A DNA stretch of 32,000 nt, taken from positions 30,001-62,000 of the forward strand of contig NZ_SNUY01000007.1 of assembly GCF_004376175.1 (NCBI RefSeq), given 5' to 3'. How positions within the stretch are numbered: position 1 is the first letter of the stretch; each line of letters opens with the position of its first letter. This stretch comes from Halalkalibacterium halodurans (GTDB lineage: Bacteria > Bacillota > Bacilli > Bacillales > Bacillaceae_D). The position numbers and the translations under genes were made by a program. The notes under the pieces were generated by a model, which saw only the letters and a list, made by a program, of their open reading frames with translations, was not told the origin of the DNA and did no database searches. This document shows positions 4,848 through 27,747 of the stretch, in pieces.

Positions 4848-5252
4848 CCTCCCACCTCCCAATAAATTAGGTACTTTAGGTTAGCAAAAATGAAAGCAAA
4901 ACACAAACCTTACTGAAGAACATTAAAGTATAAAGAGAAACGATCCTTCAACCTATTATGCTTTATTCCTTTCTATATTGCTCTTACATCATTGTTATAC
5001 CAACGATTGAGGCATTATACAGACGGGAAAAACGTTGCCATGAACTTTCCAATGGGATTCCAATTCCTAAGCAGTACATGTCCTAACGATCCGATCCATG
5101 AGCAAAGTATCTCGCTAAACTTGCTTTGCCCTCTTTCGTCCAAATATGTTAGTCTAACCGCTTTCCATAACATAACGAGCAAAACATCCATTCCCTACCA
5201 TTCTCTAATTTCCTTAATTTGTATTTATTCATAGTCGTTTTATCATAGGGAA

Positions 5253-5280
5253 GGTTGCAAAGCTATGTCTCTTTGCAACC
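5253..5280. repeat. Perfect 10-bp inverted repeat in the long MerR/levansucrase intergenic region
   Basis: GGTTGCAAAG-ctatgtct-CTTTGCAACC. There is no U-tract on either side and no gene ends here, so it is more likely a protein-binding site or structured RNA than a terminator. Confidence 0.4.
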
Positions 5281-5749
5281 GTGTTCATTACAGAAAAATA
5301 CTTTTTAAAGATCATTTTTCTCCACTTAAACAGTGAAAGAATCCGTTTCCATCTAGTCTATTTACTATTTTTACATATAAAATCAAGTCATTCCATTAAA
5401 CATCTCATAGATTTGATATAAATCTACTAGTTGCCCTTATAAATACGATGAGTTTTTGATTATTTTCCTTCATCATGAAATCACTTTCATAAAAAGGGAA
5501 AACGTTTTTAAATCCTAATCTGACAAGGTGCTTGTATACATTTTCCTACCTTTTCTCCCCCGTTTTCCCGTCATTGCACGGGTCTTGCGAGAAAGCTAGA
5601 CTGAATGTGTACATCGATATTGGGGGGAGAAAGAGCGGATAGGTCTGGTCTAACAAAGTAAAAAAAGGATTAAATTTCCTCTTGATTGTCTCAGGCCTTT
5701 GTTTGCTCTGGATGTTCCTTCACTATCAAAATCCTAAGGAGGAATGAGT

Positions 5750-7051
5750 ATGGAGAGAATGAAACCAAATGCTTGGAAAGGAGTCGTACTATCAACAGCG
5801 ATCGTTGTCAGTTCGCTACTTCCTTTCACAGCACATGCAGCTGAAAGGGAGTCTGATACCCCAGTATGGACACGTCAGCACGCATCAAATTTTGTTCTTA
5901 CTGAGGACAACACGGCACCTGAAATCAATGATTTTGAACATGTGGCTCCTGATTATTGGATTTGGGATACATGGCCGTTAAAAGATCGTGATGGGAAGGT
6001 TGCTACTGTCAATGGCTATAAGGTGGCTTTCGCTTTAACTGCTTCTAAAGAGTACACATGGCACGGACGTCACGATGTAGCAGAAATTCGTTATTTCTAC
6101 TCTAAAAACGGTAAGGACTGGACGATGGGTGATATCGCCTATGATCCAGACGAAGCCTACGGTTCAAGACGTTGGGCAGGATCGGCCATCATTGATGAAA
6201 ACGATCGAGTCCATCTTTTTTACACTGCGACTGGTCGTGAAGGAGAAGAGGTACCATCCGTTGAACAGCGACTAGCCAAGGTGACATTTGACATTGAGGC
6301 GAAAAAAGGAAACAAAGGTGTCTCGCTTTCTAATTGGGGTGAGCATGAACTGTTGCTTGAAGCAGACGGAGAATACTACGAAACAATGGATCAAGCGACG
6401 GGAGACATTCTCTATTCATTCCGCGATCCTGAGTTTTTCAAAGATCCAAAGACTGGTGAAGAGTACCTTCTCTTCGAGGGTAATACGGCTGGCTATGAAA
6501 AAGTAGTAGAACCTCACCATATCGGAGATGAAGAATTCCGTAAAAATCATGAGGTCCCTAAGGGTGCCGAAGACTTTAACGGAAACATCGGCATTGCTAA
6601 GGCGTTAGATGATGATTTATCCGAGTTTGAGTTACAGCCTCCTCTTCTTGAGGCAATGGGTGTGAACCAGCAGCTTGAGCGTCCACACGTACTTGAAAAA
6701 GGCGGAAAGTATTACTTGTTCACGATTAGTCATGAGTTTACGTTTGCACCAGGATTATGGGGTCCAGATGGACTGTATGGGTTTGTCGCTGACTCACTTC
6801 ATGGTGACTATAAACCATTAAATGAAAACGGACTTGTTGTCGCAAACCCTGAAAACAATCCATTCCAAGCCTATTCATGGTATGTCATGCCTAATGGAAC
6901 AGTGCTCAGCTTTGTCAACGAGTTTCTTGATGTAAACGGCGACCTACAATTTGGTGGGTCATTCGCGCCAACTCTTAAACTATCCATTTCAAACGATACG
7001 ACAAAAGTGACAGGTGAGCTTGGCGAAGGACAAATCATTCCTTCAAACTAA
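5750..7051 (+). CDS. sacB: Secreted GH68 levansucrase (beta-fructofuranosyl transferase), copy 1
   Basis: GH68 catalytic motifs are present: IWDTWPL (nucleophile Asp, codon 5966-5968), FRDPEFF (RDP) and QLERPHV...YYLFT (acid/base Glu). Signal peptide ...LLPFTAHA/AE. AAGGAGG at 5736-5742 is too close to the track ATG at 5744. The in-frame ATG at 5750 has 7-nt spacing. Confidence 0.9.
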   Translation: MERMKPNAWKGVVLSTAIVVSSLLPFTAHAAERESDTPVWTRQHASNFVLTEDNTAPEINDFEHVAPDYWIWDTWPLKDRDGKVATVNGYKVAFALTASKEYTWHGRHDVAEIRYFYSKNGKDWTMGDIAYDPDEAYGSRRWAGSAIIDENDRVHLFYTATGREGEEVPSVEQRLAKVTFDIEAKKGNKGVSLSNWGEHELLLEADGEYYETMDQATGDILYSFRDPEFFKDPKTGEEYLLFEGNTAGYEKVVEPHHIGDEEFRKNHEVPKGAEDFNGNIGIAKALDDDLSEFELQPPLLEAMGVNQQLERPHVLEKGGKYYLFTISHEFTFAPGLWGPDGLYGFVADSLHGDYKPLNENGLVVANPENNPFQAYSWYVMPNGTVLSFVNEFLDVNGDLQFGGSFAPTLKLSISNDTTKVTGELGEGQIIPSN

Positions 7052-7073
7052 AACGAATAGAGGAGGTCCAAAC

Positions 7074-8402
7074 ATGAGAAAGCAAAGCATGTTAGTGGCG
7101 ACTGCAATCATCGGCCTTTCGACGATCTTTTCACCACTAGCAGATTCTGCTACGGCTGAAGATCGAACCGGTTCCAATTGGACGAGAGAGCACGTTTCAA
7201 AAATCGAATTAAACGAACAAAACACCGCACCGATCATTAACGCTGACGAATTGGAAAAACTCGATGACGACTATCATACGTGGGACACTTGGCCGTTAAA
7301 AAACAAAGATGGCTCGGTGGCAACCGTTAACGGGTATAAAATCATTTTTGCCTTGTCGGCCCCAAGTGATGTCTTACCAGGAAAAGTCCACGACATCGCT
7401 GAAATCCGTTATTTTTACTCGAAGAATGGCAAAGATTGGGTAAGTGGCGGTCCAGTGTTTGAGGAAGGAGACGCCCTAGGCTCAAGGCAGTGGGCTGGAT
7501 CAGCGATGATCGATGAAAATAACCAAATCCACTTCTTCTATACGGCGACTGGTCGAGAAGGTGAAGAGCCTCTTACCTATGAGCAACGATTTGCGAAAGC
7601 TTCGGCTGATGTCGTTACGTCAAAAAATGGCGTTTCGTTCGATAACTGGTCAGATCACCAGATCATCCTAGAAGCTGATGGTGAATACTATCAAACAAAA
7701 GAGCAAGGAGATCAAGGGGATATTGCTTACGCGTTCCGTGATCCAGAATTTTTTAAGGATCCGAAATCTGGAGAAGAGTACATTATCTTTGAAGGTAATT
7801 CAAGCGGTGCACCAGCCGACCGCTCATGCTTACCTGAACATAGCGGATCTCCAGAATTTGCTGAACATCACGAAGTTCCAGAAGGGTCTGTGTTGTTCAA
7901 TGGTAGCATCGGGATCGCCAAAGTGACGAATGACGATTATACAGAATTCGAATTGCTCCCTCCTTTACTAGAGGCGAACTGCGTCAACCAAGAGCTTGAA
8001 AGGCCTCACATTATCGTAAAAGGGAATCAATATTACTTGTTTACAGACACCCATTTTGATAAATTCGCCCCTGGTATTACAGGGCCAGAAGGGTTATATG
8101 GCTTTGTGTCTGATGAGTTATTTGGTGACTATGAACCGTTAAATGGCAGTGGATTAGTCATTGCCAATCCTGAGGAAAACCCATTTCAAGCCTATTCCTG
8201 GTTAGTGCTGCCGAACGGTACGGTCATTAGCTTTGTCCACTTCACCGACATTGGTGACTTAACGATTGGAGACATCGGTCACCAGCCGGAGGAGTTTCAA
8301 TTTGATCACTTTGGTGGTATGCCTGCCCCATCTTTAAAAATTGCATTAAACCAAGATCGCTCACGCATTGTTACTGAGTTAGGGCAAGGTGTCATTAAAT
8401 AA
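7074..8402 (+). CDS. sacB: Secreted GH68 levansucrase, copy 2 (tandem paralog)
   Basis: It has the same motif set: TWDTWPL, FRDPEFF, ELERPHI...YYLFT. By eye it is roughly 60% identical to copy 1. The track ORF (7014) begins inside copy 1. The ATG at 7074 follows AGAGGAGG and gives the signal peptide MRKQSMLVATAIIGLSTIFSPLADSATA. Confidence 0.9.
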   Translation: MRKQSMLVATAIIGLSTIFSPLADSATAEDRTGSNWTREHVSKIELNEQNTAPIINADELEKLDDDYHTWDTWPLKNKDGSVATVNGYKIIFALSAPSDVLPGKVHDIAEIRYFYSKNGKDWVSGGPVFEEGDALGSRQWAGSAMIDENNQIHFFYTATGREGEEPLTYEQRFAKASADVVTSKNGVSFDNWSDHQIILEADGEYYQTKEQGDQGDIAYAFRDPEFFKDPKSGEEYIIFEGNSSGAPADRSCLPEHSGSPEFAEHHEVPEGSVLFNGSIGIAKVTNDDYTEFELLPPLLEANCVNQELERPHIIVKGNQYYLFTDTHFDKFAPGITGPEGLYGFVSDELFGDYEPLNGSGLVIANPEENPFQAYSWLVLPNGTVISFVHFTDIGDLTIGDIGHQPEEFQFDHFGGMPAPSLKIALNQDRSRIVTELGQGVIK

Positions 8403-8411
8403 TGTTCACTT

Positions 8412-8440
8412 GGAGTCAGTCTTCCCTTTAGACTGGCTCC
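8412..8440 (+). terminator. Stem-loop between levansucrase 2 and the LamG-GH32 gene (possible partial terminator or attenuator)
   Basis: GGAGTCAGTC-ttcccttta-GACTGGCTCC forms a 10-bp stem with one G-T pair. It is followed by tctctat, which is only weakly U-rich. Confidence 0.35.
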
Positions 8441-8479
8441 TCTCTATACACAAGGTAAAGGAGGAGAGCGAAAAACATC

Positions 8480-17175: not shown

Positions 17176-17192
17176 TTGAAAATCGTTCAAAC
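17176..17192 (-). promoter_or_regulatory. Degenerate LacI-type operator-like site upstream of the giant GH32 gene
   Basis: The + strand reads TTGAAAATCGTTCAAAC. It has TTGAA/TTCAA inverted arms. The core AAATCGTTCAAA resembles the TAATCGTTTAAA half of the three strong sites at 23964, 26522 and 27616. Confidence 0.3.
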
Positions 17193-17212
17193 ATTGTTCA
17201 AATCACTTAAAA

Positions 17213-17226
17213 TAAAAGCGCTTTCA
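17213..17226 (-). promoter_or_regulatory. cre-like catabolite-responsive element upstream of the giant GH32 gene
   Basis: The minus strand reads TGAAAGCGCTTTTA, matching 13 of 14 positions of the Bacillus cre consensus TGWAANCGNTNWCA. It lies in the 103-bp gap between the 760-aa gene stop and the giant gene. Confidence 0.5.
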
Positions 17227-17245
17227 TTTTTATCTGCGCCTTTCT

Positions 17246-17269
17246 CCCCTGCCGCAAAAGCCGCAGGGG
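17246..17269 (-). terminator. Weak stem-loop after the cytoplasmic LamG-GH32 gene
   Basis: CCCCTGC-cgcaaaagcc-GCAGGGG forms a GC-rich 7-bp stem. There is no clear U-tract in the gene direction, so termination is probably partial at best. Confidence 0.3.
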
Positions 17270-17277
17270 GGCACCTG

Positions 17278-19545
17278 TTACGCGTAAATTCCGTTCAACT
17301 CCCAAACGACCATCGACTCCACCACAAGAGCTTCGTCCCCAAAGAGCGATAGCCCCTTTGCGCTCCCCAATGTAGGGTATACTCGTGTCGTTAAACTTTT
17401 CACGTCATTCATATACGCTTCAACGAGAGACTTATCTAAAAACACTCGCAGCCGAAGCGGTTCATTTTTGGCAATGCCTGTCGCTCCACCTTGAACTCCC
17501 TTTGTTTTTTCATGCTGATCAAGCGTGGTCTTACTACGATCGACGAAAAAAGCTTGGGTGGAGAAGTCATAATAAAGCAACGTCTCCTCCTTACGATCAT
17601 CGGACTGACGGACGTACAAGCCGCAGCACCCTTCCTCTCGGGCTTGAAACGTCACTTGAATTTCCAACATATCACCTGAGATTTCTTTTAATTCTTGATT
17701 GACGGCAGCAACCGTTTTCTGACTCACGTCAAGTAATTTCCTTTTACGAAGAGTCTCTACTTCTATGATCGGCCTGAATTTTAGCCGATCATCTCCCGCC
17801 AAGTAAAGCTCAACAGGCAACCCGCCATTGTGGGCCCAACCCGAAGCGTATTCATACTCGATCGGCCGTTCCCCTTGAGCAATCGTAAAAAGGATGAGGC
17901 GTCCAGTCTTTGGATCGATCATCGCCGAAGGTCCGGTAAAGTGAAAATCACCTAAATCAAATAGCTGCGGCTCTTCCTCGTCAGGGAGAAACCGTCCGTT
18001 TTCACGATCCCACGTCCCGATCCAGTAAAAAACCTCCACATCTGCCTCATCCCCTATCGGACTAATGATGAAAATGTGCTTTTCTTTCCCGCGACTATCG
18101 GTTCCGAGCGGAAGCAAAATCGGGAGCTCCCACACCCTCCCTAAAAAAGGGTACTTCGCTCGATCACTTATGTAGAGGGGGCCTTTAAACGTCCATTCAT
18201 ATAAATCGTCTGATTCAAATAACAGCGCTGTTCCACCCCGGCCGTTCATACCAGAGCCGACTAGTTGGTACCAGATCGCCCCTTCTTTCCAAACAAACGG
18301 ATCGCGAAATCCATCGTCATCTAAATCGAACCCTTCTGGCTGAATCAATACAGGCTCTGAGTGCTTTATCCATTTCTTGAGCTCTATGTCGCCATCTTGC
18401 TTCACGGTACTTCGCGCTAAGCCGATCCGCTGATTCGGAAGACAGCGATTGTCACCAGCAGTAAAAAATAAAACCGGAACACCTTCTTCATCGTAATGGG
18501 CACATCCTGACCACGTTCCATCAGGGTCCACATGATCTTTTTCAGGTGAAAGGGCAACAGGCAGATCCCGCCAATGGATCAAATCCTCACTAATCCAATG
18601 ACCCCAATGAATGTTTCCCCAATACGGTCCTTGTGGATTGTGCTGATAAAAAAGGTGATACCGCCCTTTATAGTAAAGCGGGGCATGGGGTTCATTCATC
18701 CAGTGTCCCGGCGGTGAAAGGTGATATTGCGGTCGATGGACATCGGATCCAAACTCCTCACGCTGAATCGCCATATCCTTTTCAGCAATTTCCGGGATTT
18801 GCCCATCATAAATAGACAAATACGCTCGCCATTCCTTAAGAAGTTCTTCTTCCGTTAACGCTCGGCTATATATGCGGACATCATCGATCAAGCCACTAAA
18901 CATCCCGAGTGAAAACGTGTCCTCGATCATCTTCGGATCATTGTGCTTCCCAATGAGCAAATCCGTATCGGCGCAAGCAATCGGAATGCCTTTCTCTCCG
19001 TATGTGTTCGCCACTTGTGTTCCATTTAAGTAGAGAGCCATAAAGCCGTCGGTAGGATCATAGGTGGCCGCAACGTGCGTCCATTCGTTTTTCGGCACGG
19101 TGATCTCCCTGCTAGAAACTTTCAACCAGCCCTTCGCTAATCCGACGTGAAATGCCACCACGCCATGGGGTTGAAAGCCAAGGATGAATCCTGTCTTATC
19201 CTTCGGTACATGCTGATTAACGAGCGCTGCCATTACATCGTCATCAATGCCGCCATAGGAATGGGGGGCGACCCAAACGGATATGGTGAGCCCCTCTTTT
19301 AAAGGGGGGAATGCCTCCTTCTTCCTTCTCACATATGTTGAATACCCATCAAACCACAACGAATGCCCGCGAATCCCCTGTCGTCGTTTAATCGTTCGAC
19401 TAGGCTGAAACACAGCCTGCTGGAACACGTGATGAACCGCGTCTTCGATGTGTTGAACCTTATCTCGCGTAACGTGCCCTTCTCGTTCGTTAAACGGCCA
19501 ATGGGCCAAAAGGGCATGATCAATTAAACCTGCTTCACCTCTCAC
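17278..19545 (-). CDS. Cytoplasmic LamG-domain GH32 fructanase or fructotransferase (Glu-nucleophile type)
   Basis: No signal peptide or TM segment. LamG domain: LWFDGYSTYV...LTISVWVAPHSY...LYLNGTQV...FSGLIDDVRIYSRAL. GH32 motifs: RPQYHL, HWMNEPHAP (Glu codon 18693-18691), FRDPFVW, VWELPILL, and the beta-sandwich LRVFLDKSLVEAYMN. The track ATG at 19560 has no ribosome-binding site. The in-frame GTG at 19545 lies 6 nt after GGAGGGG and is preferred. Confidence 0.88.
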   Translation of the reverse strand: MRGEAGLIDHALLAHWPFNEREGHVTRDKVQHIEDAVHHVFQQAVFQPSRTIKRRQGIRGHSLWFDGYSTYVRRKKEAFPPLKEGLTISVWVAPHSYGGIDDDVMAALVNQHVPKDKTGFILGFQPHGVVAFHVGLAKGWLKVSSREITVPKNEWTHVAATYDPTDGFMALYLNGTQVANTYGEKGIPIACADTDLLIGKHNDPKMIEDTFSLGMFSGLIDDVRIYSRALTEEELLKEWRAYLSIYDGQIPEIAEKDMAIQREEFGSDVHRPQYHLSPPGHWMNEPHAPLYYKGRYHLFYQHNPQGPYWGNIHWGHWISEDLIHWRDLPVALSPEKDHVDPDGTWSGCAHYDEEGVPVLFFTAGDNRCLPNQRIGLARSTVKQDGDIELKKWIKHSEPVLIQPEGFDLDDDGFRDPFVWKEGAIWYQLVGSGMNGRGGTALLFESDDLYEWTFKGPLYISDRAKYPFLGRVWELPILLPLGTDSRGKEKHIFIISPIGDEADVEVFYWIGTWDRENGRFLPDEEEPQLFDLGDFHFTGPSAMIDPKTGRLILFTIAQGERPIEYEYASGWAHNGGLPVELYLAGDDRLKFRPIIEVETLRKRKLLDVSQKTVAAVNQELKEISGDMLEIQVTFQAREEGCCGLYVRQSDDRKEETLLYYDFSTQAFFVDRSKTTLDQHEKTKGVQGGATGIAKNEPLRLRVFLDKSLVEAYMNDVKSLTTRVYPTLGSAKGLSLFGDEALVVESMVVWELNGIYA

Positions 19546-19572
19546 AAGCTTCCCCTCCATCTTTCATATAAA

Positions 19573-19600
19573 AGCCGGAACAGTAGATTCAGCTCCGGCT
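19573..19600 (-). terminator. Intrinsic-terminator-like hairpin just upstream of the 760-aa gene start
   Basis: In the minus orientation: AGCCGGA-(14-nt loop)-TCCGGCT followed by TTTATAT. The loop and stem contain the 14-mer CGGAGCTGAATCTA, which is also present in the hairpin at 19665-19732. Confidence 0.45.
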
Positions 19601-19664
19601 CATAGACTTGCTGCTTATAAAACGAACCTTTAATCAGTGGGCGTTGAGTGAATCAGGACATTAG

Positions 19665-19732
19665 CGTCCGTTATCTCCCGCCTAAATAGATTCAGCTCCG
19701 CTCTCTATTTTGAGGCGGGAGTTTTACGGACG
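19665..19732 (-). other. Long three-segment stem-loop immediately after the solute-binding-protein stop codon
   Basis: The paired arms are CGTCCGT/ACGGACG, CTCCCGCC/GGCGGGAG and AAATAGA/TCTATTT, around a 13-nt loop. No U-tract follows. It may be an mRNA stabiliser, a processing site or a regulatory structure. Confidence 0.45.
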
Positions 19733-19733
19733 G

Positions 19734-21338
19734 TTATTGTGATAAATTTTCGTTAAAACGATCGAGGCCCTCTTGATAAATCTCCATTAATTCATCAAGC
19801 CCCATTCTCTCAAGCTGGTTCACATACGAATCCCATTCTTCCTCAACTCCGCCATTTAACAACCAAAGGGCTTGTTGCTGATTCACGAAATCTAAAATTT
19901 CCATTTCCAAACGGTTGATGCGGTCAAGCTCTTCCTCCGTGAAAAAGATATCTGGGTAATTCTCTTCCACTAAATAAGGAGCATACACTTCTTCAATGTC
20001 GTTCAGACGCTGCTTCGCACGCGGTTCCATATCGACAACCGTTCCAAAGTGCTCAGCTAGTACGACCGTCGGACCGTTCGGTGCTACTTTTTGCCGCAGT
20101 TCGCCCATCGCAACGCCTTCGTCTAGCTCTTTATTGACGAGCATCCCCTTTTCATCTTCCTCATAAATGATCCCGATCGGACCCCAACTTATTTGCGCGG
20201 ACATCTTCGGATCATAGAGCTGATCGACCCAGCGCATCGTAATTTCCGGATGCTTGTTCGCAGATGTAATCACGAACGCGCCTCTATCGTATTCGGAGTA
20301 ATTCGATCGACCGACCATTTGATGACCATTTGGCCCTTCTAACGGTGGTAAGAGCACATAGTCGTCCGCACGCTCCGGCCCAACAATTTCCTCTGTCTCC
20401 CACCAAATGTAGGCACCTAGCGTTGGTGGGTTCGTCTTCCCTTTAGCAAAATATTGACTGACATCATGGGTAAATGCTTCTGGATCAATTAGCCCTTCAT
20501 CCACCCAATCGTGGAAATAGGCAATCGCTTCTTTATACTCTGGCTGAACAGCAGTAAAAATGACATTACCGTCGCGAACGATACGATGATCCACATTATC
20601 TGGAATCCCGAAGGCGGCAAACATATCGCCGAAGTTCCCTGTCCAGTGATTGTGCATAAAGCTAAAAGGAATGACATCCTTCTTTCCAGTGCCATTCGGA
20701 TCTTCATCGCGAAAGGCACGGAGCACATCCCCAAGTTCATCAAGGGTGGTCGGCATCTCAAGTCCTAGCTCATCTAACCAAGCTTTGTTGATCGATGTAA
20801 AGTTCGGGACCGCGGCTAATCCCATCTCTTCCGCTTTCGGCAACGAATAAATGTGGCCATCAGGAGCCGTTACCATACTTTTTAGCTCTGGGCGTTGCTC
20901 AAAGATGGCTTGCAGGTTTGGCGCGTACTCCTCAATTAAATCTTCTAACGGGATGATCGTACCTGCTTGACCGTATTTGACAATCTCATGATCGGAAAAC
21001 TCAGCATTGTAAAAAGCATCGGGGAGATCGTTGCTCGCAAGCATTAAATTTTTTCGTTCTTCATAGCCATCACCAGGGATATTATCCCAAGCGATATGGA
21101 CATTGGTCATCTCCTCTAACGATTGAATGATTTCCATTTCATTAAAATCTGGTGCTAATGGCGCTTTTGGTGACACAAACTTTAACGTGACTTTTTCATC
21201 GACGATCGGCAATCCCTCTCGATGAAACTCATGGGCTCCTTCACCGTCGCCCTCCTGACTGCCAGTGCTGTTTGAACACGCGATCACCCCTACCATCAGT
21301 GCCATGATTAGTAAACATACAGCTAATCGTTTTCTCAT
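19734..21338 (-). CDS. Extracellular solute-binding lipoprotein of a carbohydrate ABC importer (large LplA-like type)
   Basis: Lipoprotein signal MRKRLAVCLLIMALMVGVIAC with the lipobox Cys, then an S/T/G linker. At ~530 aa it has the size typical of oligosaccharide-binding proteins that partner LplB/LplC-type permeases. It is strongly acidic. Confidence 0.85.
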   Translation of the reverse strand: MRKRLAVCLLIMALMVGVIACSNSTGSQEGDGEGAHEFHREGLPIVDEKVTLKFVSPKAPLAPDFNEMEIIQSLEEMTNVHIAWDNIPGDGYEERKNLMLASNDLPDAFYNAEFSDHEIVKYGQAGTIIPLEDLIEEYAPNLQAIFEQRPELKSMVTAPDGHIYSLPKAEEMGLAAVPNFTSINKAWLDELGLEMPTTLDELGDVLRAFRDEDPNGTGKKDVIPFSFMHNHWTGNFGDMFAAFGIPDNVDHRIVRDGNVIFTAVQPEYKEAIAYFHDWVDEGLIDPEAFTHDVSQYFAKGKTNPPTLGAYIWWETEEIVGPERADDYVLLPPLEGPNGHQMVGRSNYSEYDRGAFVITSANKHPEITMRWVDQLYDPKMSAQISWGPIGIIYEEDEKGMLVNKELDEGVAMGELRQKVAPNGPTVVLAEHFGTVVDMEPRAKQRLNDIEEVYAPYLVEENYPDIFFTEEELDRINRLEMEILDFVNQQQALWLLNGGVEEEWDSYVNQLERMGLDELMEIYQEGLDRFNENLSQ

Positions 21339-21367
21339 TTACATGCGCCCCCTTTTTATATCGTTTG

Positions 21368-21979
21368 CTATCCTTGAAACCCGTCGTATGCTGCCCCTAC
21401 ATTTTTGAACGCTTCATAACAAAGAACATAAATCGCATAACACGTAAAGCTCGTCATGAACACCATCAATACAGGGATCTGATAAATGAAATATCCAGCT
21501 AAAACGATAACGCCCACGCTTAAGCTTGTATATTTAAGTTGACTTGTCGCGATCAAAAACGCATTGCGAACTAAATGCACGACCGGCAAGTCAAAATGAA
21601 CAATAACCGGAAATAAATACACCGTTGTAAAGCTGAAAAGGATCAACATGAAGCCAATAAGTACTGTGACACCGAAACCGCCAATGGATTCCATTGGCTT
21701 TAACAATGGTAGATTGGCAAATAAAAGTCCCGCAAGCGGTAGCCACACCAAGGTGAGACCGATACTGACTTTCACGTTTTTTCGACAATGGTGAATAAAT
21801 GGCTTCAGCACATTCGTTTCTTTTTTCATATGCCAATCACGAAGTACACCAAACATTGCTAATGTAGCCGGAACGAATGTAATAACAGGCAAGCAAGCAA
21901 GAAGCCATAACAAGTTCAAAAGAAAGAAATTCACGCAGCGTTCTACTAGTTGATAGAGCTTGGAATCTAACAAACTCAT
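21368..21979 (-). CDS. YesL-family (DUF624) integral membrane protein
   Basis: N-terminus ...VERCVNFFLLNLLWLLACLPVITFVPATLAMFGVLRDW and about 5-6 TM segments. This family commonly accompanies LplABC-type sugar transporters in Bacilli. Confidence 0.75.
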   Translation of the reverse strand: MSLLDSKLYQLVERCVNFFLLNLLWLLACLPVITFVPATLAMFGVLRDWHMKKETNVLKPFIHHCRKNVKVSIGLTLVWLPLAGLLFANLPLLKPMESIGGFGVTVLIGFMLILFSFTTVYLFPVIVHFDLPVVHLVRNAFLIATSQLKYTSLSVGVIVLAGYFIYQIPVLMVFMTSFTCYAIYVLCYEAFKNVGAAYDGFQG

Positions 21980-22006
21980 TAGTCATCTCTCCTTATATGG
22001 CAGGAC

Positions 22007-22903
22007 TTAACCTTTAATCCCACCAATCATGACGCCTTGAACGAAGTATTTTTGCACAAACGGATAGACGATGAGAAGTGGCAAACTTCCGACGATAATC
22101 ACCCCGTATTTAATCAAATCAGCAATTCGTTGTTGGGCAGCCATCGACTCTAAGTCGCCGACCATCGTGGCCGCAGCCTCATTTTGGATTAGAATGTTCC
22201 GCAAAATGAGTTGAAGCGGGTACAGGCTTTCATCGTTTAAATAGACGAGAGCATCAAAGTACGAATTCCAATGTCCAACCGCATAGAACAGAACCATGAC
22301 AGCAATAATGGGCTTCGACAAAGGTAAGACAATCTTCGTGAAAAACTTCGTATTGGAGCATCCATCAACCTTTGCGGCCTCTAGCATTTCCTGCGGGATC
22401 GTCGCCTGGAAGAACGTCCTTGCGACGATAATATTCCAAATCGCCACCGCCTTCGGAATGATCATCGCCCACATCGTGTTGACCATCCCAAGGTTTTGGA
22501 CAACCAAGTAAGTCGGAATCAAGCCACCTGAGAAAAACATCGTAAACACGAACATCATCATGAAAAACGTGCGACCGTAAAAGTCTTTGCGTGACAAAGC
22601 ATAGGCTGCTGTTAACGTCAGGCTGACATTAAGAGCAGTACCGAGCACCGTGTAGATAATCGTATTTTTATAACCGGTCCAAATTTTCCCGTCTTGGAAA
22701 ATACGGGAATACCCTTCGAACGTAATCTCCACCGGGTAGAGCCACACATCCCCAGCAAAAATGCGATCGGGATTGCTGATAGAGGCAATGACGATAAAAT
22801 AGAGCGGGTAAAGAACCGCAAGCAACATGAGCGTTAAAAGCGTGATGTTGATCACATCAAACAGTTTGTCTTCCTTTGATCGTCTAATTGTGGACAAGCT
22901 CAT
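22007..22903 (-). CDS. Carbohydrate ABC transporter permease (LplC-like, MalG-type)
   Basis: The start is moved to the ATG at 22903 (AAGGAGGGTGG upstream), giving MSLSTIRRSKEDKLFDVINITLLTLMLLAVLYPLYF. The EAA-loop region reads EAAKVDGCSNTKFFTKIVLPLSKP. The track start at 22966 would overlap the upstream permease. Confidence 0.88.
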   Translation of the reverse strand: MSLSTIRRSKEDKLFDVINITLLTLMLLAVLYPLYFIVIASISNPDRIFAGDVWLYPVEITFEGYSRIFQDGKIWTGYKNTIIYTVLGTALNVSLTLTAAYALSRKDFYGRTFFMMMFVFTMFFSGGLIPTYLVVQNLGMVNTMWAMIIPKAVAIWNIIVARTFFQATIPQEMLEAAKVDGCSNTKFFTKIVLPLSKPIIAVMVLFYAVGHWNSYFDALVYLNDESLYPLQLILRNILIQNEAAATMVGDLESMAAQQRIADLIKYGVIIVGSLPLLIVYPFVQKYFVQGVMIGGIKG

Positions 22904-22919
22904 CTTTTTCCACCCTCCT

Positions 22920-23915
22920 TTACCATAAGCCGCTACCTGAAAGGCGTTTGGCGACTCGATTGACATACCATAGCAGGAAGAGATTAATCACGGCATTAAA
23001 TAAACCGACAGCAGCGGCAAAGCTATACTGTGCTTGCTGAAGACCGACCTTATAAACATAGGTTGGGATGATTTCAGATGCACTTTGATTCAGCGGTGTC
23101 TGCAGCAAATACGCTTTTTCAAATCCAATATTCATGATGTTTCCAACGGATAAGACGAGCAAAATCACCGCAATCGGGAGGATGGCTGGTATATCGACGT
23201 GAAGAATCCGTTGAAACTTGTTTGCACCGTCCATTATCGCGGCCTCATGAACCTCAGGATTTACCGCGGCAAGGGCAGCTAAATAAATAATCGCGGCCCA
23301 GCCTGTTTCCTGCCAAAGACTTGAACCAACGTAGAGCGGTTTAAACCACGACGCCTCTGCCAAAAAGCGAATCGGCTCCACGCCTACTAGCATTAAAAAG
23401 TTGTTCACTAATCCATTATTCGAGAAAAACACGTAGGCCATCCCGACTAACACTACGACGGAGATGAAATGCGGCGCATAAATGACCGTTTGGACAAATT
23501 TTTTATACCGTTTGAACACCAATTGATTCAGCATTAACGCAACAATGATCGGCGTCGGGAAAGTTAGAATTAATTGCAACGCACTTAAGGAAAAGGTGTT
23601 ATACATTAGATCCCAAAATTGATATGACTCAAAAAAACGGATAAAATGTTCAAGCCCTACCCACGGACTTCCGGTAATCCCTAGGCCCGGGGAGTAGTCA
23701 CGAAAGGCAATTTGCACGCCGTACATCGGAATATAGTGAAAGACAATAAAGTAAACTAGCGTAGGCAGCAGGAACAAATAAAGCTCCCAATTTTGTTTGA
23801 TTTGTTTCCAGCGCTTATTTTTCTGTCGTCTTGTTGGCTTAGAGTTGTTCACTGGGTGCAAAGGAACTTGTGGCGGCTGCTGCGAGAAGGTTTGTTTCTT
23901 TGCTGCTGGCTCCAC
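22920..23915 (-). CDS. Carbohydrate ABC transporter permease (LplB-like, MalF-type)
   Basis: Conserved WELYLFLLPTLVYFIVFHYIPMYGVQIAFRDY and the EAA loop EAAIMDGANKFQRILHVDIPAILP. The track start at 23942 is a TTG. The GTG at 23915 lies 8 nt after AGGAGGG and is preferred. The exact start is uncertain. Confidence 0.85.
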   Translation of the reverse strand: MEPAAKKQTFSQQPPQVPLHPVNNSKPTRRQKNKRWKQIKQNWELYLFLLPTLVYFIVFHYIPMYGVQIAFRDYSPGLGITGSPWVGLEHFIRFFESYQFWDLMYNTFSLSALQLILTFPTPIIVALMLNQLVFKRYKKFVQTVIYAPHFISVVVLVGMAYVFFSNNGLVNNFLMLVGVEPIRFLAEASWFKPLYVGSSLWQETGWAAIIYLAALAAVNPEVHEAAIMDGANKFQRILHVDIPAILPIAVILLVLSVGNIMNIGFEKAYLLQTPLNQSASEIIPTYVYKVGLQQAQYSFAAAVGLFNAVINLFLLWYVNRVAKRLSGSGLW

Positions 23916-23963
23916 GGCGCCTTCCCTCCTTTTTTTCTTCAAAGTCTCAAATACGCGCTTTGA

Positions 23964-23986
23964 TTTAAACGATTACGTAAACGTTT
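23964..23986 (-). promoter_or_regulatory. LacI-type operator candidate A (abuts the stop codon of the cytoplasmic GH32, upstream of the permease genes)
   Basis: The + strand reads TTTAAACGATTACGTAAACGTTT. Its reverse complement contains TACGTAATCGTTTAAA, identical over 16 nt to site C. The sequence is a near-palindrome around TTACGTAA. Confidence 0.55.
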
Positions 23987-25501
23987 TTATTTCCTCCCTG
24001 TCACGTGCTCCCACGTGCTCTGCAACGCATAAAGCTCTAACGAAACTAACCTCACCTCTCCCCCTTTCACATAAAATTCCATAGCCTTGCTATCATCTTC
24101 TGGGAAAATCAAATCGGTTATGACCACTTCGCCATCGTTTAAAAAAAGCTCAACAGAAGATTTATCCACAAAGATGTGGAACGTCACACAGCCTGTTTCT
24201 CCTTTCACCTGTATTGAATGCCGACCTTTAAACGCCTGATGGAACTCGCTCTCACCTGAATGTTCACGATCGACAAACACTTGCTGATCATTCGTCCGAT
24301 AGCCGATAATAGTTCCCTGATCGTGACCAGAGGATTTCCTCACGTTAAAGCCAAATTCTGAGGCGGTGAGATTTTCGACTGTTGCGACAATTTCAAATAC
24401 ATTTTCCGCTTGATTGGCTAGCACATTCACCGTCTCATCCACCATTTCATTTTCTATCACGAGCTTGCTCTGACGGAGGGTACGCAATTCGGCAATCGGC
24501 TGTTGCACCAATGTAATGTCTCCATTGACCGTTTCTCGAAGCCCCACTTCACGAGGAATTGACATCGCGCTCCTCCACGGGTTAGTCGGCAATTCATTGG
24601 CATATGTCCAATCGCTCATCCACGCGAGCCATATTCGCCTGCCGTCCGCACTTGGTAGATCGGAAAACGACTGAGCTGCGTAAAAATCCCGTCCGTAATC
24701 GACCCATAACGTTTCAGATGCCGGACGATCATTGGTAAAGGACACGCCGTCAAACTCGCCGATAAAATATTGACCACCGGAACCGCCTGCAATCGCCCCT
24801 GCGCCTAAATCCACTTGCAGCACCCATTTTTTCTTTGCATGATTCCCGTCGACTGGAAGCGGGAAAAGGTCTGGGCATTCCCACACACCACCATGGGCAC
24901 CGTCTGTACTACCGAATTCGCTCAAGTAATCCCACTCGATAAGATTTTTCGAGCCGTACAGCATCACTTTTTGTCCTGCCGCTACCACCATGACCCACTT
25001 GTTCGTGTCATCGTGCCAAAACACTTTTGGGTCGCGAAAATCCTTTTCTTCTCCATTGGTGAGCACCGGATTGCCGTCATACTTCTGCCATGTTCGGCCT
25101 TTGTCCTGGCTATATGCAAGACTCTGAGATTGTATCCCCAGTTGTTCATCGTGGTGGGTAAAAATGGCGACAAGTCCCTCACCACCAGTGAATAGTCCTG
25201 ACGTATTCTCCCAATCGACAACAACACTCCCTGAAAAAATCATTCCATACTCATCGGGCTCCAAGGCAATCGGCAGGTGCTCCCACCTTAGCAGATCTTG
25301 GCTCACGGCGTGACCCCAATGCATCGGTCCCCATTTCCGGCCATTCGGATGGTACTGATAAAACAAATGATATTCACCCGCATAATAGACGAGCCCATTC
25401 GGGTCATTCATCCAATTCTCCTCGGGGGTAAAATGAAATTGCGGTCGGTACTTTTCCGTATAATCGCTCACTCTATCTGTCGGTCTTTTTACATTTGGCA
25501 C
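23987..25501 (-). CDS. Cytoplasmic exo-type GH32 beta-fructosidase (exo-inulinase, levanase or sucrase type)
   Basis: YRPQFHFTPEENWMNDPNGLVYYAGEYHLFYQYHP, FRDPKVFWH, VWECPDLFPLP, and a C-terminal beta-sandwich (FHIFVDKSSVELFLNDGEVV). No signal peptide. The track start is a GTG at 25510. The in-frame GTG at 25501 lies 8 nt after GAGGAG. Either start is possible. Confidence 0.9.
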   Translation of the reverse strand: MPNVKRPTDRVSDYTEKYRPQFHFTPEENWMNDPNGLVYYAGEYHLFYQYHPNGRKWGPMHWGHAVSQDLLRWEHLPIALEPDEYGMIFSGSVVVDWENTSGLFTGGEGLVAIFTHHDEQLGIQSQSLAYSQDKGRTWQKYDGNPVLTNGEEKDFRDPKVFWHDDTNKWVMVVAAGQKVMLYGSKNLIEWDYLSEFGSTDGAHGGVWECPDLFPLPVDGNHAKKKWVLQVDLGAGAIAGGSGGQYFIGEFDGVSFTNDRPASETLWVDYGRDFYAAQSFSDLPSADGRRIWLAWMSDWTYANELPTNPWRSAMSIPREVGLRETVNGDITLVQQPIAELRTLRQSKLVIENEMVDETVNVLANQAENVFEIVATVENLTASEFGFNVRKSSGHDQGTIIGYRTNDQQVFVDREHSGESEFHQAFKGRHSIQVKGETGCVTFHIFVDKSSVELFLNDGEVVITDLIFPEDDSKAMEFYVKGGEVRLVSLELYALQSTWEHVTGRK

Positions 25502-25513
25502 CGTACCCACTCC

Positions 25514-26500
25514 TCACACTCTGTTTATTTGGTCTTTCAATAATGATTGTACGTCTTCAAGTCTCGGTAACGCGGAAATCGCCCCTCTTCTTGTAGCCGT
25601 TAACGCCCCGCAAACATTGGCAAACGTTAAAAGCATCTCAAGCAAGTCTGGATCGCTTAGAATGTCTTGCAACAGCTCATACTTGAGCAACGGGGCAAGT
25701 CTATAAAGAAATCCGCCCACAAAAGCATCTCCTGCTCCCGTCGTATCGACCGCTTTCACCTTGATGGCTGTCATATAGCCTGAGCTTGTTTTCGTGTAAT
25801 ACGCGCAGCCAGCTTCTCCCTTTGTCACGAGCACGAGCTTGACCGAGCCTATGAACAAGGATTTGGCGGCAGTGAGTTCTTCCTCATCGCCAGTTAAGAA
25901 GGCCAGCTCCTCTTCACTTAGTTTTAAAATGTCTACATTGGGAACCTGCCCGAGAATGGCCTCCCTTGCTTGCTGTTCATCTCCCCATAACGGCAGCCGG
26001 ATGTTCGGATCAAAGCTAATGATCATCTCGTTTTGCTTCGCGTAGTGTATGGCTTGAAGTGTCGCCTCTCTCACCGGATTGGTAATGAGCGAAATTGAGC
26101 CAAAATGAAAGATAGCCGCACGTTTAAACCACTCTTCTTGTAAATCAGTAGGTTTGAACAGCATATCGGCTGACGGCTCACGGTAAAAGAGAAAATCCCG
26201 TTCACCATCATTGTCTAAGGATACGAAGGCGAGAGCGGTCTTCGCCTCTGTTGTTTGCAAAAGGGGTTTTGTGTCCACCCCTTTTTTGCGAAGCGTCTCG
26301 ATTAAAAAGTCACCAAATGGGTCGGCCCCTACCTTTCCAATCATGGATACGTGACCGCCGAGATGAGCGATCGCTGCACTCACATTAGCAGGGGCACCGC
26401 CTGCCTCTTTTTGAAACTGATGAACATCCTTTAATTTGTCTCCGTTTTTTAACGGGACAAAATCGATTAATAGCTCGCCAAAGCACAGTATATCCGCCAT
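25514..26500 (-). CDS. PfkB-family sugar kinase, fructokinase-like
   Basis: ADILCFGELLIDFVP...GGAPANV at the N-terminus and the PfkB C-terminal signature DTTGAGDAFVGGFLY. It lies in an operon with GH32 genes. The ATG at 26500 (GAGGTG 5 nt upstream) is preferred over the track GTG at 26506. Confidence 0.88.
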   Translation of the reverse strand: MADILCFGELLIDFVPLKNGDKLKDVHQFQKEAGGAPANVSAAIAHLGGHVSMIGKVGADPFGDFLIETLRKKGVDTKPLLQTTEAKTALAFVSLDNDGERDFLFYREPSADMLFKPTDLQEEWFKRAAIFHFGSISLITNPVREATLQAIHYAKQNEMIISFDPNIRLPLWGDEQQAREAILGQVPNVDILKLSEEELAFLTGDEEELTAAKSLFIGSVKLVLVTKGEAGCAYYTKTSSGYMTAIKVKAVDTTGAGDAFVGGFLYRLAPLLKYELLQDILSDPDLLEMLLTFANVCGALTATRRGAISALPRLEDVQSLLKDQINRV

Positions 26501-26521
26501 GATCACACCTCGTCAGTTTAA

Positions 26522-26550
26522 TTTAAACGTTTACGTAATCGATTACGTCA
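26522..26550 (-). promoter_or_regulatory. LacI-type operator candidate B, in the promoter region of the fructokinase-GH32-transporter operon
   Basis: TTTAAACGTTTACGTAATCGATTACGTCA. It contains the perfect 16-bp palindrome ACGTAATCGATTACGT (26533-26548), whose core GTAATCGATTAC fits the LacI/GalR pattern (TG)TAAnCGnTTA(CA). It shares TACGTAATCG.TTA with sites A and C. Confidence 0.65.
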
Positions 26551-26573
26551 TGAGCATAGGAGATCGCTCTCCA

Positions 26574-27581
26574 CTACACAGAGTCACGTGAAATCAATTG
26601 GGTCGGCAGTAAGATCGACTTTTTATCTGATCGCTTCTGATGCCCTTTCTCGATCCGCTCCAATAAAACATGGACCGCCTTCTCCCCTATTTCATAGGAT
26701 GGCTGCTCGACGACGGATAGTGGTGGGGTCGTAATTTTCATCCAATCATAATTATCAAAGCCGATAATCGCGATTTCTTCTGGGATGTTGATCTGATGTT
26801 CATTGATGTACCGCAATGCTCCCATCGTCATTACATTATTCGACACAAACAAGGCCGTAACCTGCTCCTCTGAGATTAATTTCTTGGCCAAATTGTACCC
26901 TTCCTGAAAATTAGGATGACCTTCTTTAATAAAAGTTGGCTTTACTTCCAAATGATAGCGTTCATGGGCTTCCTTATACCCTCGCAACCGTTCATCACTC
27001 GTTGTAATCCCTAAATAGCCTGAAATAAAGCCAATTCGCTCGTGCCCTTTCTTAATGAGTGTTTCAATCGCTTGGAACGTGCCTTGATACCCATCGGCCA
27101 TCACCAGATCGCCGTCATAGCCCTGCGGTTTCCGGTCGATAAAGACGACGGGGTAATCCCCGGAAAAAACGCCGTCATACTGAGAGATGTCGGAAGCCGT
27201 CGGTGCAATGATGAGTCCATCAATTAACTGGGTATTAAAAAGTTTAATTTGCTCAAGCTCCGTCTGCAGATCTTCATGGGAATTCCCTAAAATGAGGTTA
27301 TAGCCTTTCTGTTTCACAATTGTTTCAATCCCATTTGCGATCGACATAAAAAAGAAATTTGACGTGTCCATATGCAGCATCGGCACGATTAGCCCGATCG
27401 TCATAGATTTCCGACTGCGCAAGCTTTTCGCGACTAAGTTTGGCTTATAGTCTAGCTCCTTCATCGCTTGAAAGACTTTCACCTTCGTTGATTCTGATAC
27501 AAACCTCGTCTCATTAATCACATGAGAGACGGTTGCGGTTGACACATTTGCTTTTTTTGCCACATCCTTAATACTCGCCAT
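26574..27581 (-). CDS. LacI/GalR-family transcriptional regulator
   Basis: The N-terminal HTH reads MASIKDVAKKANVSTATVSHVINETRFVSESTKVKVFQAMKELDYKPNLVAKSLRS. A periplasmic-binding-protein-like sugar-sensing domain follows. It heads the minus-strand fructan block. Confidence 0.92.
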   Translation of the reverse strand: MASIKDVAKKANVSTATVSHVINETRFVSESTKVKVFQAMKELDYKPNLVAKSLRSRKSMTIGLIVPMLHMDTSNFFFMSIANGIETIVKQKGYNLILGNSHEDLQTELEQIKLFNTQLIDGLIIAPTASDISQYDGVFSGDYPVVFIDRKPQGYDGDLVMADGYQGTFQAIETLIKKGHERIGFISGYLGITTSDERLRGYKEAHERYHLEVKPTFIKEGHPNFQEGYNLAKKLISEEQVTALFVSNNVMTMGALRYINEHQINIPEEIAIIGFDNYDWMKITTPPLSVVEQPSYEIGEKAVHVLLERIEKGHQKRSDKKSILLPTQLISRDSV

Positions 27582-27594
27582 AAGTTCTCCTCTT

Positions 27595-27608
27595 TCGAAG
27601 CGCTTTCA
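27595..27608 (-). promoter_or_regulatory. cre-like box in the 5' leader of the LacI gene
   Basis: The + strand reads TCGAAGCGCTTTCA, matching 12 of 14 positions of TGWAANCGNTNWCA. It shares AAGCGCTTTCA with the box at 17213-17226. Confidence 0.35.
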
Positions 27609-27615
27609 TCATTGA

Positions 27616-27640
27616 TTTAAATACTACGTAATCGTTTAAA
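27616..27640 (-). promoter_or_regulatory. LacI-type operator candidate C, upstream of the LacI gene (probable autoregulation)
   Basis: TTTAAATACTACGTAATCGTTTAAA. The 16-mer TACGTAATCGTTTAAA (27625-27640) is identical to the reverse complement of site A. Confidence 0.55.
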
Positions 27641-27747
27641 TGAAGCTTATAATATTCCGAACTTTTTGTCAATGGAGGAATAAAAATAATCAGAAAACCC
27701 TTTGCCCTTATTTAGTTAAGTTTTTGTATCCGTTTCTCTTTTTCTTG

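Follow-up and report, generated by a model that had tools for sequence, protein, structure and literature searches.

A putative inulin-type synthesis operon and a predicted fructan utilisation locus lie tail-to-tail in a 32-kb stretch of DNA recorded as Halalkalibacterium halodurans

Background

The DNA studied here, a 32-kb stretch of contig NZ_SNUY01000007.1 (referred to as the window), carries a dense group of fructan genes. Two of them encode secreted enzymes of glycoside hydrolase family 68 (GH68), others contribute five catalytic domains of family GH32, and an importer of the ATP-binding cassette (ABC) type, a sugar kinase and a LacI-family regulator are encoded with them. A preliminary description of the sequence took all of these for a single integrated 22-kb locus, named the GH68 enzymes levansucrases and regarded the wiring as atypical for Bacilli. 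Do these genes form one unit, which type of fructan would they handle, and how unusual is their arrangement? As detailed below, two individually widespread modules have been placed tail-to-tail and are not one unit; judged from sequence comparison, it is likely that one of them serves inulin-type synthesis and that the other is a fructan utilisation locus. The reading given here thus differs from the earlier one in three points, namely that there are two modules, that they are common and that they are probably of inulin type, and the kind of system as such is already known.

Results

Genes in the window were called from a map of open reading frames (ORFs) and domains from Pfam scans. The plus-strand arm (5744-10939) consists of three genes, GH68a, GH68b and a GH32 gene with a LamG domain (LamG-GH32). 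The minus-strand arm is transcribed in the order LacI regulator, PfkB-family kinase, a GH32 of 507 amino acids (aa), two permeases, a DUF624 protein, a substrate-binding protein (SBP), a LamG-GH32 of 760 aa and a giant enzyme of 2047 aa. Gaps between genes across the locus measure 3-173 nucleotides (nt), which bears out the tight packing described before, and the kinase, LacI regulator, binding protein, permeases and YesL-like DUF624 protein were all found in the window. The GH68, GH32, LamG and Big_2 assignments, for which a check with hidden Markov models (HMMs) had been proposed, were all recovered in the Pfam scans, and together with motif reading these scans confirmed two GH68 proteins with signal peptides and five GH32 domains. 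Each of the five is a GH32N+GH32C pair with intact nucleophile, RDP and acid/base motifs, two of them reading WMNDPNG/RDP/WEC and the other three W(M/Q)NEP../RDP/WELP. According to a simple analysis of N-termini, the leaders of GH68a, GH68b and the giant protein are signal-peptide-like, and no export signal was seen in the 760-aa GH32, the 507-aa GH32, PfkB and LacI. Signal peptides, a membrane anchor, a lipobox and leaderless N-termini thus agree with the earlier sorting of the proteins into compartments, by which fructan is made and cut outside the cell, imported and finished inside. In an NCBIfam scan, no component reached an equivalog cut-off. The source record names H. halodurans (TES56773-TES56777); the assembly may carry a wrong species label, because the window proteins share clusters of at least 90% identity with Salipaludibacillus agaradhaerens.

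The distribution of the two arms was studied in a survey that used one genome per species and was built on relatives of the cytoplasmic LamG-GH32; at least 588 relatives were confirmed and 78 loci were kept, onto which the window proteins were mapped by tblastn. A FusA/Lpl-type importer was accompanied by an exo-GH32 and a LamG-GH32 in 33 of the 78 listed loci, and 21 of these 33 also encode a secreted enzyme with the repeat modules described below. This catabolic cassette has the form LacI-permeases-SBP-(PfkB)-exoGH32-LamGGH32-(secreted multidomain GH32), and among the listed loci it was present in, among others, Paenibacillus (including P. polymyxa and P. macerans), Cohnella, Metabacillus, Guptibacillus, Sutcliffiella, Alteribacter and Priestia. 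At least two LamG-GH32 domains were encoded in 37 of the listed loci and at least three in nine. Six listed loci have GH68 genes at most 10 kb away from a LamG-GH32, mostly as a triple set of paralogs A, B and C, and five of those species possess beside GH68 a LamG-GH32 of about 800 aa with the same N-terminal anchor as in the window. Because the anchored form adjoins GH68 in five species, one or several GH68 genes plus an anchored LamG-GH32 are a conserved module of its own.

Both modules were joined in only one of the 78 listed loci, that of Priestia megaterium S2 (L033), and there they are co-directional. In S. agaradhaerens (CP058292) they are about 2 Mb apart. The catabolic cassette at 3.09 Mb of that genome reads LacI-GH32-permease-permease-DUF624-SBP-LamGGH32-giant (2025 aa), and the GH68 pair at 1.10 Mb (453 and 439 aa) lies beside genes for a histidine kinase, an AraC-type response regulator, an SBP and a different GH32. 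Given this separation, a single integrated locus was not borne out. Likewise, the view that the density of GH32 domains and the LacI/ABC wiring are atypical for Bacilli found no support, because the cassette recurs and because loci combining LacI, ABC importer and GH32 for fructo-oligosaccharides (FOS) are known; such loci have been characterised in Streptococcus pneumoniae and Lactobacillus acidophilus, both of the class Bacilli. The survey of gene neighbourhoods that the preliminary description had proposed therefore showed the cassette to be common, and our literature search found no paper characterising it in Paenibacillus or Bacillaceae; a paper on Priestia koreensis describes only the classical sacB-levB pair.

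The GH68 genes head the plus-strand arm. GH68a (5744..7051, plus strand), a secreted fructosyltransferase of the inulosucrase-like class A, matched PF02435 (Glyco_hydro_68) at 5e-107 with 358.8 bits, and GH68b (7074..8402, plus strand), a secreted fructosyltransferase or beta-fructofuranosidase belonging to a different class of paralogs, at 2e-97 with 327.2 bits, the gathering cut-off of the family being 27 bits. The catalytic WDTW, RDP and ERP motifs are intact in both, as expected for members of GH68, and both N-termini show K/R, a hydrophobic stretch and an AXA-type site. An alternative start of GH68a at 5750 yields the 433-aa form given in databases; GH68b has 442 aa and is identical to TES56773.1.

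For both enzymes the best PDB match was 7bj4 (GH68a 3.6e-100, GH68b 2.1e-120); this entry is InuHj, an enzyme from Halalkalicoccus jeotgali that synthesises inulin. The best levansucrase structures matched more weakly (7e-79 for GH68a, 1e-73 for GH68b), and SacB of Bacillus subtilis (1oyg) at only 1e-27. In PMC8066391, GH68 enzymes of S. agaradhaerens and Pontibacillus are grouped with haloarchaeal inulosucrases, and HX(H/F)T, located 18-21 residues past the acid/base Glu, is proposed as an inulosucrase marker, which its authors call tentative. GH68a reads HEFT at this position (LERPH...HEFT) and fits the marker. The same text, citing Kralj 2018, attributes FOS formation to FosA of B. agaradhaerens and inulin formation to its InuO. 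Our GH68 homolog search and cluster look-ups returned no sequence named FosA or InuO among the matches, and which S. agaradhaerens gene is InuO we infer from the motif. With both enzymes nearest to InuHj, the marker present in GH68a and a sister-species pair that makes inulin and FOS, the product of the GH68 pair is probably inulin-type and not levan, and 'levansucrases', which had been a label and not an observation, is probably wrong. This assignment is held to be probable, not proven, because those who proposed the marker themselves regard it as tentative.

GH68b is nearer to InuHj than GH68a is, yet the marker is present only in GH68a, so that marker and relatedness disagree. Loci with three GH68 genes (L033, L051, L058, L067) have the same paralog order, A (H-T-F-T), B (HINK) and C (H-x-E-K with ERPS), which suggests that the paralogs have long shared out their tasks in a conserved way. 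The window set is made up of one class A-like copy and a fourth type; the latter, GH68b, is 84% identical to a copy from Halalkalibacter lacteus and shares 58-60% identity with classes B and C. HINK is also carried at the marker position by the 439-aa GH68 of S. agaradhaerens.

In the minus-strand arm the binding protein (19734..21338, minus strand) is a FusA-type lipoprotein of 534 aa with the lipobox VIAC. It matched FusA of S. pneumoniae (PDB 5g5y, 1.2e-119) over the full length with 44% identity across 476 aligned residues, and the next PDB match reached 1e-47. FusA has GF3, GF4 and inulin as ligands, and its residues Glu167, Trp314 and Arg419 are indispensable for the binding of β2-1 FOS; these three and Trp384 are conserved as E170, W313, R415 and W385, respectively. 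The comparison supports the view that the binding protein is a FusA-type FOS receptor. It is followed upstream by a polytopic DUF624 (YesL/MusI-like) membrane protein (21368..21979, minus strand; PF04854 6e-17, a weak MusI_fam match and five transmembrane-like windows), likely an importer accessory, and by two permeases of the BPD_transp_1 type, one LplC/FusC-like (22007..22966, minus strand; PF00528), with a true start probably at 22903 that gives 298 aa as in its ortholog, and one LplB/FusB-like (22920..23942, minus strand; PF00528 9e-14). The LplABC-type importer proposed earlier was thus recovered as lipoprotein SBP, two permeases and DUF624 protein, and the locus contains no importer ATPase gene. 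Such an absence is the norm, as sugar importers of this type in Firmicutes rely on a common orphan MsmX/MsmK ATPase.

The last gene of the arm encodes the giant secreted multidomain enzyme (10977..17120, minus strand), 100% identical to the hypothetical protein TES56775.1. Its order is signal peptide, exo-type GH32, three CBM38-like modules, LamG-GH32, Big_2, a fourth CBM38-like module and a Lys-rich tail, all features being on the minus strand. The N-terminal, exo-inulinase-like GH32 (15555..16967; WMNDPNG/RDP/WEC) has its best PDB matches in the exo-inulinase 8i12 (7e-104) and in 1y4w (6e-99). The LamG-GH32 unit (11778..14015; WQNEPGG, RDP, WELP) belongs to a clade of its own together with P0122-P0141, and the Big_2 domain (11547..11768) matched PF02368 at 9e-11. 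A giant with two GH32 domains is nothing unusual: dozens of relatives of about 1800-2400 aa contain two such domains in either order. Full-length relatives occur in Halalkalibacter flavus (78% identity) and in several Paenibacillus (43-45%); in a further large group the exo domain is C-terminal.

The four repeat modules, three at 14016..15476 and the fourth at 11043..11531, are 155-165 aa long and share 47-48% identity. Single repeats gave only a sub-threshold CBM_4_9 match in Pfam, and the repeat profile, compared with PDB sequences at E<=10, returned nothing but a chance Fab match. The repeat model (AlphaFold2, pLDDT 95) is a beta-sandwich, and the nearest solved folds were assorted carbohydrate-binding modules (CBMs) with TM-scores of at most 0.62. 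The repeat HMM matched residues 64-240 and 250-391 of a cluster (P0180/P0240) that bears the name cycloinulo-oligosaccharide fructanotransferase (CFTase). CBM38 was defined in the literature as residues 32-389 of the Paenibacillus macerans CFTase, comprising two beta-sandwiches that bind inulin and levan. Because the HMM matches coincide with this published span, the repeats are called CBM38-type here and would be fructan-binding modules, the assignment being indirect by way of the CFTase-named cluster. CBM66, the type known from B. subtilis SacC, was considered for the repeats and dismissed: PDB sequences gave no match, and the top 50 fold matches included no CBM66 entry.

Among the homologs (P0166/P0167; P0196-P0208), some bacterial GH32 proteins contain as many as 8 CBM38-like modules in tandem, and the module is also detectable, with lower scores, in GH32 proteins of about 1400 aa from the fungi Aspergillus, Penicillium and Stachybotrys. 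The tail of the giant enzyme (10977-11045, minus strand) is Lys-rich with two Cys, SECSKKAKKDKKGKKSKARECNE, and is missing in the 78%-identical H. flavus ortholog P0122; it may have a role in cell-envelope retention.

Two further GH32 enzymes are cytoplasmic. The LamG-GH32 of 760 aa (755 aa in RefSeq; 17278..19560, minus strand) lacks a hydrophobic N-terminus, has the motifs WMNEPHA/RDP/WELP and matched LamG at 2e-24, GH32N at 3e-62 and GH32C at 2e-29. More than 1800 homologs were found, none of which has a functional name, and no characterised member of this cytoplasmic family of about 750 aa was found. The three LamG-GH32 copies of the window share 44-49% mutual identity and belong to three separate, well-populated clades. 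All three have Glu at the nucleophile position, as in endo-inulinases; in the fungal endo-inulinase INU2 this Glu is the catalytic nucleophile, and the E43D exchange leaves about 5% activity. Endo action of these enzymes is accordingly no more than predicted, because the similarity to INU2 is distant and the cytoplasmic clade has no functional name. The characterised endolevanase LevB1 (9h8i) ranked low and was the closest match of no GH32 domain.

The CFTase-named clade has its own motif, WMNEAHA, and 45-46% identity to the window copies, and the name of P0240 is a depositor annotation by similarity. CFTase membership of the giant enzyme or the other window copies was excluded by clade placement in the tree and by the motif variant.

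The second cytoplasmic enzyme is the exo-type GH32 of 507 aa (23987..25510, minus strand), which has no signal peptide, reads WMNDPNG/RDP/WECP and matched GH32N at 3e-103, its best PDB match being the exo-inulinase 8i12 (5e-132). It is preceded by the PfkB-family kinase (25514..26506, minus strand; PF00294 2e-74), a probable fructokinase, for which fructokinase was the best NCBIfam model (259 bits, cut-off 450).

Relatives of the LamG-GH32 enzymes with 39-46% identity are encoded in haloarchaea (L027, Haloferax gibbonsii; P0186/P0187), a Vibrio metagenome-assembled genome (L037) and many actinomycetes (L041-L059, Streptomyces), and some haloarchaeal ones are fused to a second GH32 and to ricin-type lectin domains. 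Transfer of GH68 from bacilli to archaea has been proposed earlier; the degradative genes seem to have been transferred as widely.

The plus-strand arm ends with the membrane-anchored LamG-GH32 of 819 aa, whose catalytic domain is extracytoplasmic (8480..10939, plus strand; LamG 1e-22, GH32N 8e-65, GH32C 6e-32). Its N-terminus contains a single very hydrophobic segment (Kyte-Doolittle value KD19 2.57) without a cleavage motif, and its catalytic motifs are WMNEPHA/RDP/WELP. The 99% identical ortholog P0280 has 792 aa and ends with ...RLSSAF. The window reads GCT TTT AAT at this point, and one more T would give GCT TTT TAA, placing the ancestral stop at about 10856-10858. Loss of the stop (region 10848-10939), which could be a true mutation or a homopolymer sequencing error, adds 27 codons that are read straight through a hairpin.

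This 49-nt hairpin (10872..10920) is flanked by U-runs on both strands and has the features of a bidirectional intrinsic terminator for both convergent arms. Its folding energies are -27.1 (plus) and -29.1 (minus) kcal/mol with z-scores of -6.9 and -5.8, and none of 200 shuffled sequences folded as well. The shared terminator of the preliminary description hence exists and is strong, but it is located at 10872-10920 and not in the 37-nt intergenic gap. That it lies in the final 60 nt of the 819-aa ORF is due solely to the loss of the stop codon in the window copy. A terminator pattern scan of the convergent gap gave no match, because the hairpin has an internal loop and sits within the extended ORF; visual inspection and folding revealed it. 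Folding of 10900-11010 by itself gave no signal.

With respect to control elements, no domains of a phosphotransferase system (PTS), of a BglG/SacY-type (PRD/CAT) antiterminator or of a LevR/sigma-54 activator were detected in window ORFs of at least 100 aa, so that the absence of PTS, BglG-type antiterminator and LevR noted earlier is true of the entire 32 kb. An Rfam scan for leader RNAs or riboswitches found nothing. The LacI-family regulator (26574..27581, minus strand) combines a LacI helix-turn-helix (4e-20) with Peripla_BP domains. Upstream of it lies a putative promoter of the minus-strand arm (27646..27672, minus strand), TTGACA and TATAAG with a short spacer of 15 nt, which was read from the sequence and not called by the scan of the arm. 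No intergenic terminators were evident within this arm in that scan, and the arm is probably one long transcript from this element.

Two near-identical palindromes (TGAAAGCGCTT..A) precede lacI and the giant gene. TGAAAGCGCTTTTA (17213..17226), noted on reading the sequence 5' of the giant gene, is a candidate LacI/CcpA operator, and TGAAAGCGCTTCGA (27595..27608), between the putative promoter and the ribosome-binding site of lacI, is a candidate operator or catabolite-responsive element (cre). Only the lacI-proximal one is conserved in S. agaradhaerens, where its counterpart TGAAAGCGCTTTAA (L081:2777) keeps the position.

Right after the stop of the cytoplasmic LamG-GH32 and some 20 nt ahead of the palindrome at 17213-17226, a GC-rich hairpin without U-tract (17246-17269, minus strand) could be an mRNA-stabilising or processing element parting the giant gene from the upstream genes. 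At the other end of the locus (region 4089-5743), a gene for a 257-aa protein with a double MerR helix-turn-helix diverges from GH68a over an unusually long gap of 880 nt, in which a hairpin with a 10-bp stem (5253-5280) and cre-like palindromes (5274-5287 and 5476-5489) were seen; the gap could be the control region of the GH68 operon.

Discussion

Under the two-module reading, the plus-strand arm would be a three-gene operon and an inulin-flavoured counterpart of B. subtilis sacB-levB. Its GH68 enzymes would convert sucrose into beta-2,1 fructan and FOS at the cell surface, and the anchored LamG-GH32 with its Glu nucleophile would trim that polymer. The second module (27672-10977, minus strand) would represent a Gram-positive fructan utilisation locus expressed as one long LacI-controlled transcript. 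Here the giant enzyme would be held on the polymer by its four CBM38-type modules and cut it with an endo-type LamG-GH32 and an exo-type GH32. FOS, possibly of considerable chain length, would enter by the FusA-type receptor, the two permeases and the DUF624 protein, driven by an orphan MsmX-type ATPase encoded elsewhere. Inside the cell, an endo-type LamG-GH32 and the exo-GH32 would release fructose (plus sucrose or glucose), and the PfkB kinase would then phosphorylate the fructose. In this scheme, linkage specificity, the endo or exo mode of the individual GH32 enzymes, operon structure, the effector of LacI and re-harvest of the cell's own polymer are deductions from sequence. The earlier proposal, with polymer made and cut outside, oligosaccharides imported and two cytoplasmic GH32 enzymes finishing the job, appears broadly right in its course, with the correction that the fructan would be inulin-type, not levan.

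Several observations weigh against parts of this scheme. The inulosucrase marker is missing in GH68b, which reads HFDK at that position, and GH68a is only 57% identical to the 453-aa class A enzyme of S. agaradhaerens (HTFT); moreover, the authors of the marker state that sequence cannot yet reliably separate inulosucrases from levansucrases. CBM38 binds levan as well as inulin, and the secondary FusA contacts His177, Asn318, Lys353 and Glu423 are replaced by Ala, Glu, Ala and Ala in the binding protein. As to endo action, fungal endo-inulinase (3rwk) is only a distant relative of the LamG-GH32 domains (1e-26 to 1e-35), whose best PDB match is annotated as sucrose-6-phosphate hydrolase. Palindromes are no more frequent in the window than expected by chance, for which reason the two described above stay candidates, and a cre site would fit them equally well. 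Upstream of the GH68 arm there is only the double-MerR gene.

Some of these points would suit a levan system, in which the GH68 enzymes are levansucrases, the GH32 enzymes endo- and exo-levanases and the imported sugars levan oligosaccharides. Most GH68 entries, including many homologs found here, are annotated as levansucrase, exo-GH32 enzymes often cleave both linkages, and neither the CBM38-type modules nor present GH68 sequence criteria discriminate firmly between the two fructans. We regard a levan system as unlikely, given that InuHj, which forms inulin, matches the GH68 enzymes far better than any levansucrase structure does, with SacB trailing at 1e-27, that the FusA triad for β2-1 FOS is kept, that the GH68 pair of the sister species makes inulin and FOS, and that no GH32 domain is nearest to a characterised endolevanase, LevB1 ranking low. 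Still less probable is a transferase pathway, in which extracellular LamG-GH32 enzymes make cyclic (or anhydro) fructans that are imported and whose ring is opened by the cytoplasmic LamG-GH32. The domain order CBM38-LamG-GH32-CBM38, which is that of the CFTase-named cluster (P0240), speaks for it, and it would explain both a cytoplasmic endo-type paralog beside the exo-GH32 and the altered peripheral contacts of the FusA-like receptor; against this, the window has no member of the CFTase clade, which differs in its motif (WMNEAHA) and shows about 45% identity, and the name of that clade was given by similarity. It would be a speculative step to see in the extracellular LamG-GH32 enzymes fructanotransferases that turn self-made or plant inulin into cyclic, 'privatised' fructans for a modified FusA receptor. 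If this were true, the widespread cytoplasmic LamG-GH32 family would supply the intracellular step so far lacking in a cyclofructan pathway that resembles cyclodextrin metabolism.

A more serious possibility, though one we hold with reserve, is that the arms are functionally unrelated, the minus-strand arm scavenging plant inulin and FOS and the GH68 arm making an exopolymer that serves biofilm formation or osmoprotection and is not taken back up through this importer. This is in keeping with the distance of about 2 Mb between the modules in S. agaradhaerens, where the GH68 pair has a different regulatory set beside it (histidine kinase, AraC-type regulator, SBP), with the single listed locus (L033) out of 78 that joins them, and with the frequent occurrence of the cassette without a nearby GH68. 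The arms are also convergent and therefore not co-transcribed. On the other hand, the predicted product of the GH68 arm belongs to the predicted substrate class of the catabolic arm, both modules contain paralogous LamG-GH32 enzymes, and the two have been joined independently, in another orientation, in P. megaterium S2.

The practical outcome is the correction of a likely mislabel, from levansucrase to inulosucrase-type, in an alkaliphile with a close relative that supplies industrially interesting inulin and FOS enzymes. In addition, a very large family of cytoplasmic LamG-GH32 proteins (750 aa, more than 1800 homologs) turned out to be conserved beside FusA-type importers in Paenibacillaceae and Bacillaceae, and the data suggest that haloarchaea share with these bacilli fructan-degrading LamG-GH32 genes besides GH68. 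The cytoplasmic family is the most interesting part of the locus; the value of the finding is modest, it raises no question of long standing, and it will hardly surprise a specialist on carbohydrate enzymes.

Comparison with known systems

The nearest counterpart of the catabolic arm is the fus (formerly sus) locus of S. pneumoniae, which consists of the FusABC importer, a GH32 and a regulator and is driven by the orphan MsmK. Both have a FusA protein with the ligand-binding triad, two permeases and a cytoplasmic GH32, both loci lack an ATPase gene, and both are of the locus type ABC importer, GH32 and LacI-type regulator. The window differs by its additional secreted and surface enzymes, which bear CBMs, by a second cytoplasmic GH32 (LamG), by the DUF624 protein and the fructokinase, and by the four changed peripheral ligand contacts of the binding protein. 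The fructan polysaccharide utilisation locus of Bacteroides thetaiotaomicron, reportedly described by Sonnenburg and co-workers in Cell in 2010, follows a similar plan with a surface endo-enzyme, oligosaccharide import, internal exo-GH32 enzymes and a fructokinase in the locus. The window system is Gram-positive, uses an ABC importer with lipoprotein receptor in place of SusC/D and LacI in place of a hybrid two-component sensor, and finishes its substrates in the cytoplasm, whereas this occurs in the periplasm there.

B. subtilis likewise has an operon, sacB-levB-yveA, in which an extracytoplasmic, endo-acting GH32 comes after the GH68 gene, and in levDEFG-sacC separate catabolic genes including an exo-GH32. 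In contrast to that species, the GH68 enzymes of the window belong to another branch (SacB 1oyg, 1e-27), their GH32 partner is a LamG-GH32 and not of the LevB type, and an ABC importer, LacI and CBM38-type modules take the place of PTS, LevR/SacY and CBM66. With the P. macerans CFTase the giant enzyme shares repeated beta-sandwich fructan-binding modules flanking a LamG-GH32 and the Glu nucleophile, RDP and WELP motifs. The window copies, however, are in other clades with about 45% identity and other variants of the nucleophile motif, and the giant additionally has an exo-GH32 and Big_2.

For the synthesis arm, the closest parallel is the FosA/InuO system of S. agaradhaerens WDG185 (Kralj et al. 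2018, Carbohydr Polym 179:350), likewise a tandem pair of secreted GH68 enzymes, from a species that is very closely related. The class A motif H-x-F-T is common to GH68a and the 453-aa enzyme, and all probably belong to the same bacillus/haloarchaeal 'inulosucrase subfamily'. Identities amount to 57% for GH68a against class A and 58% for GH68b, which forms its own class, against class B; the S. agaradhaerens pair has a two-component system upstream and is without a LamG-GH32 downstream, the position taken in the window by the anchored enzyme.

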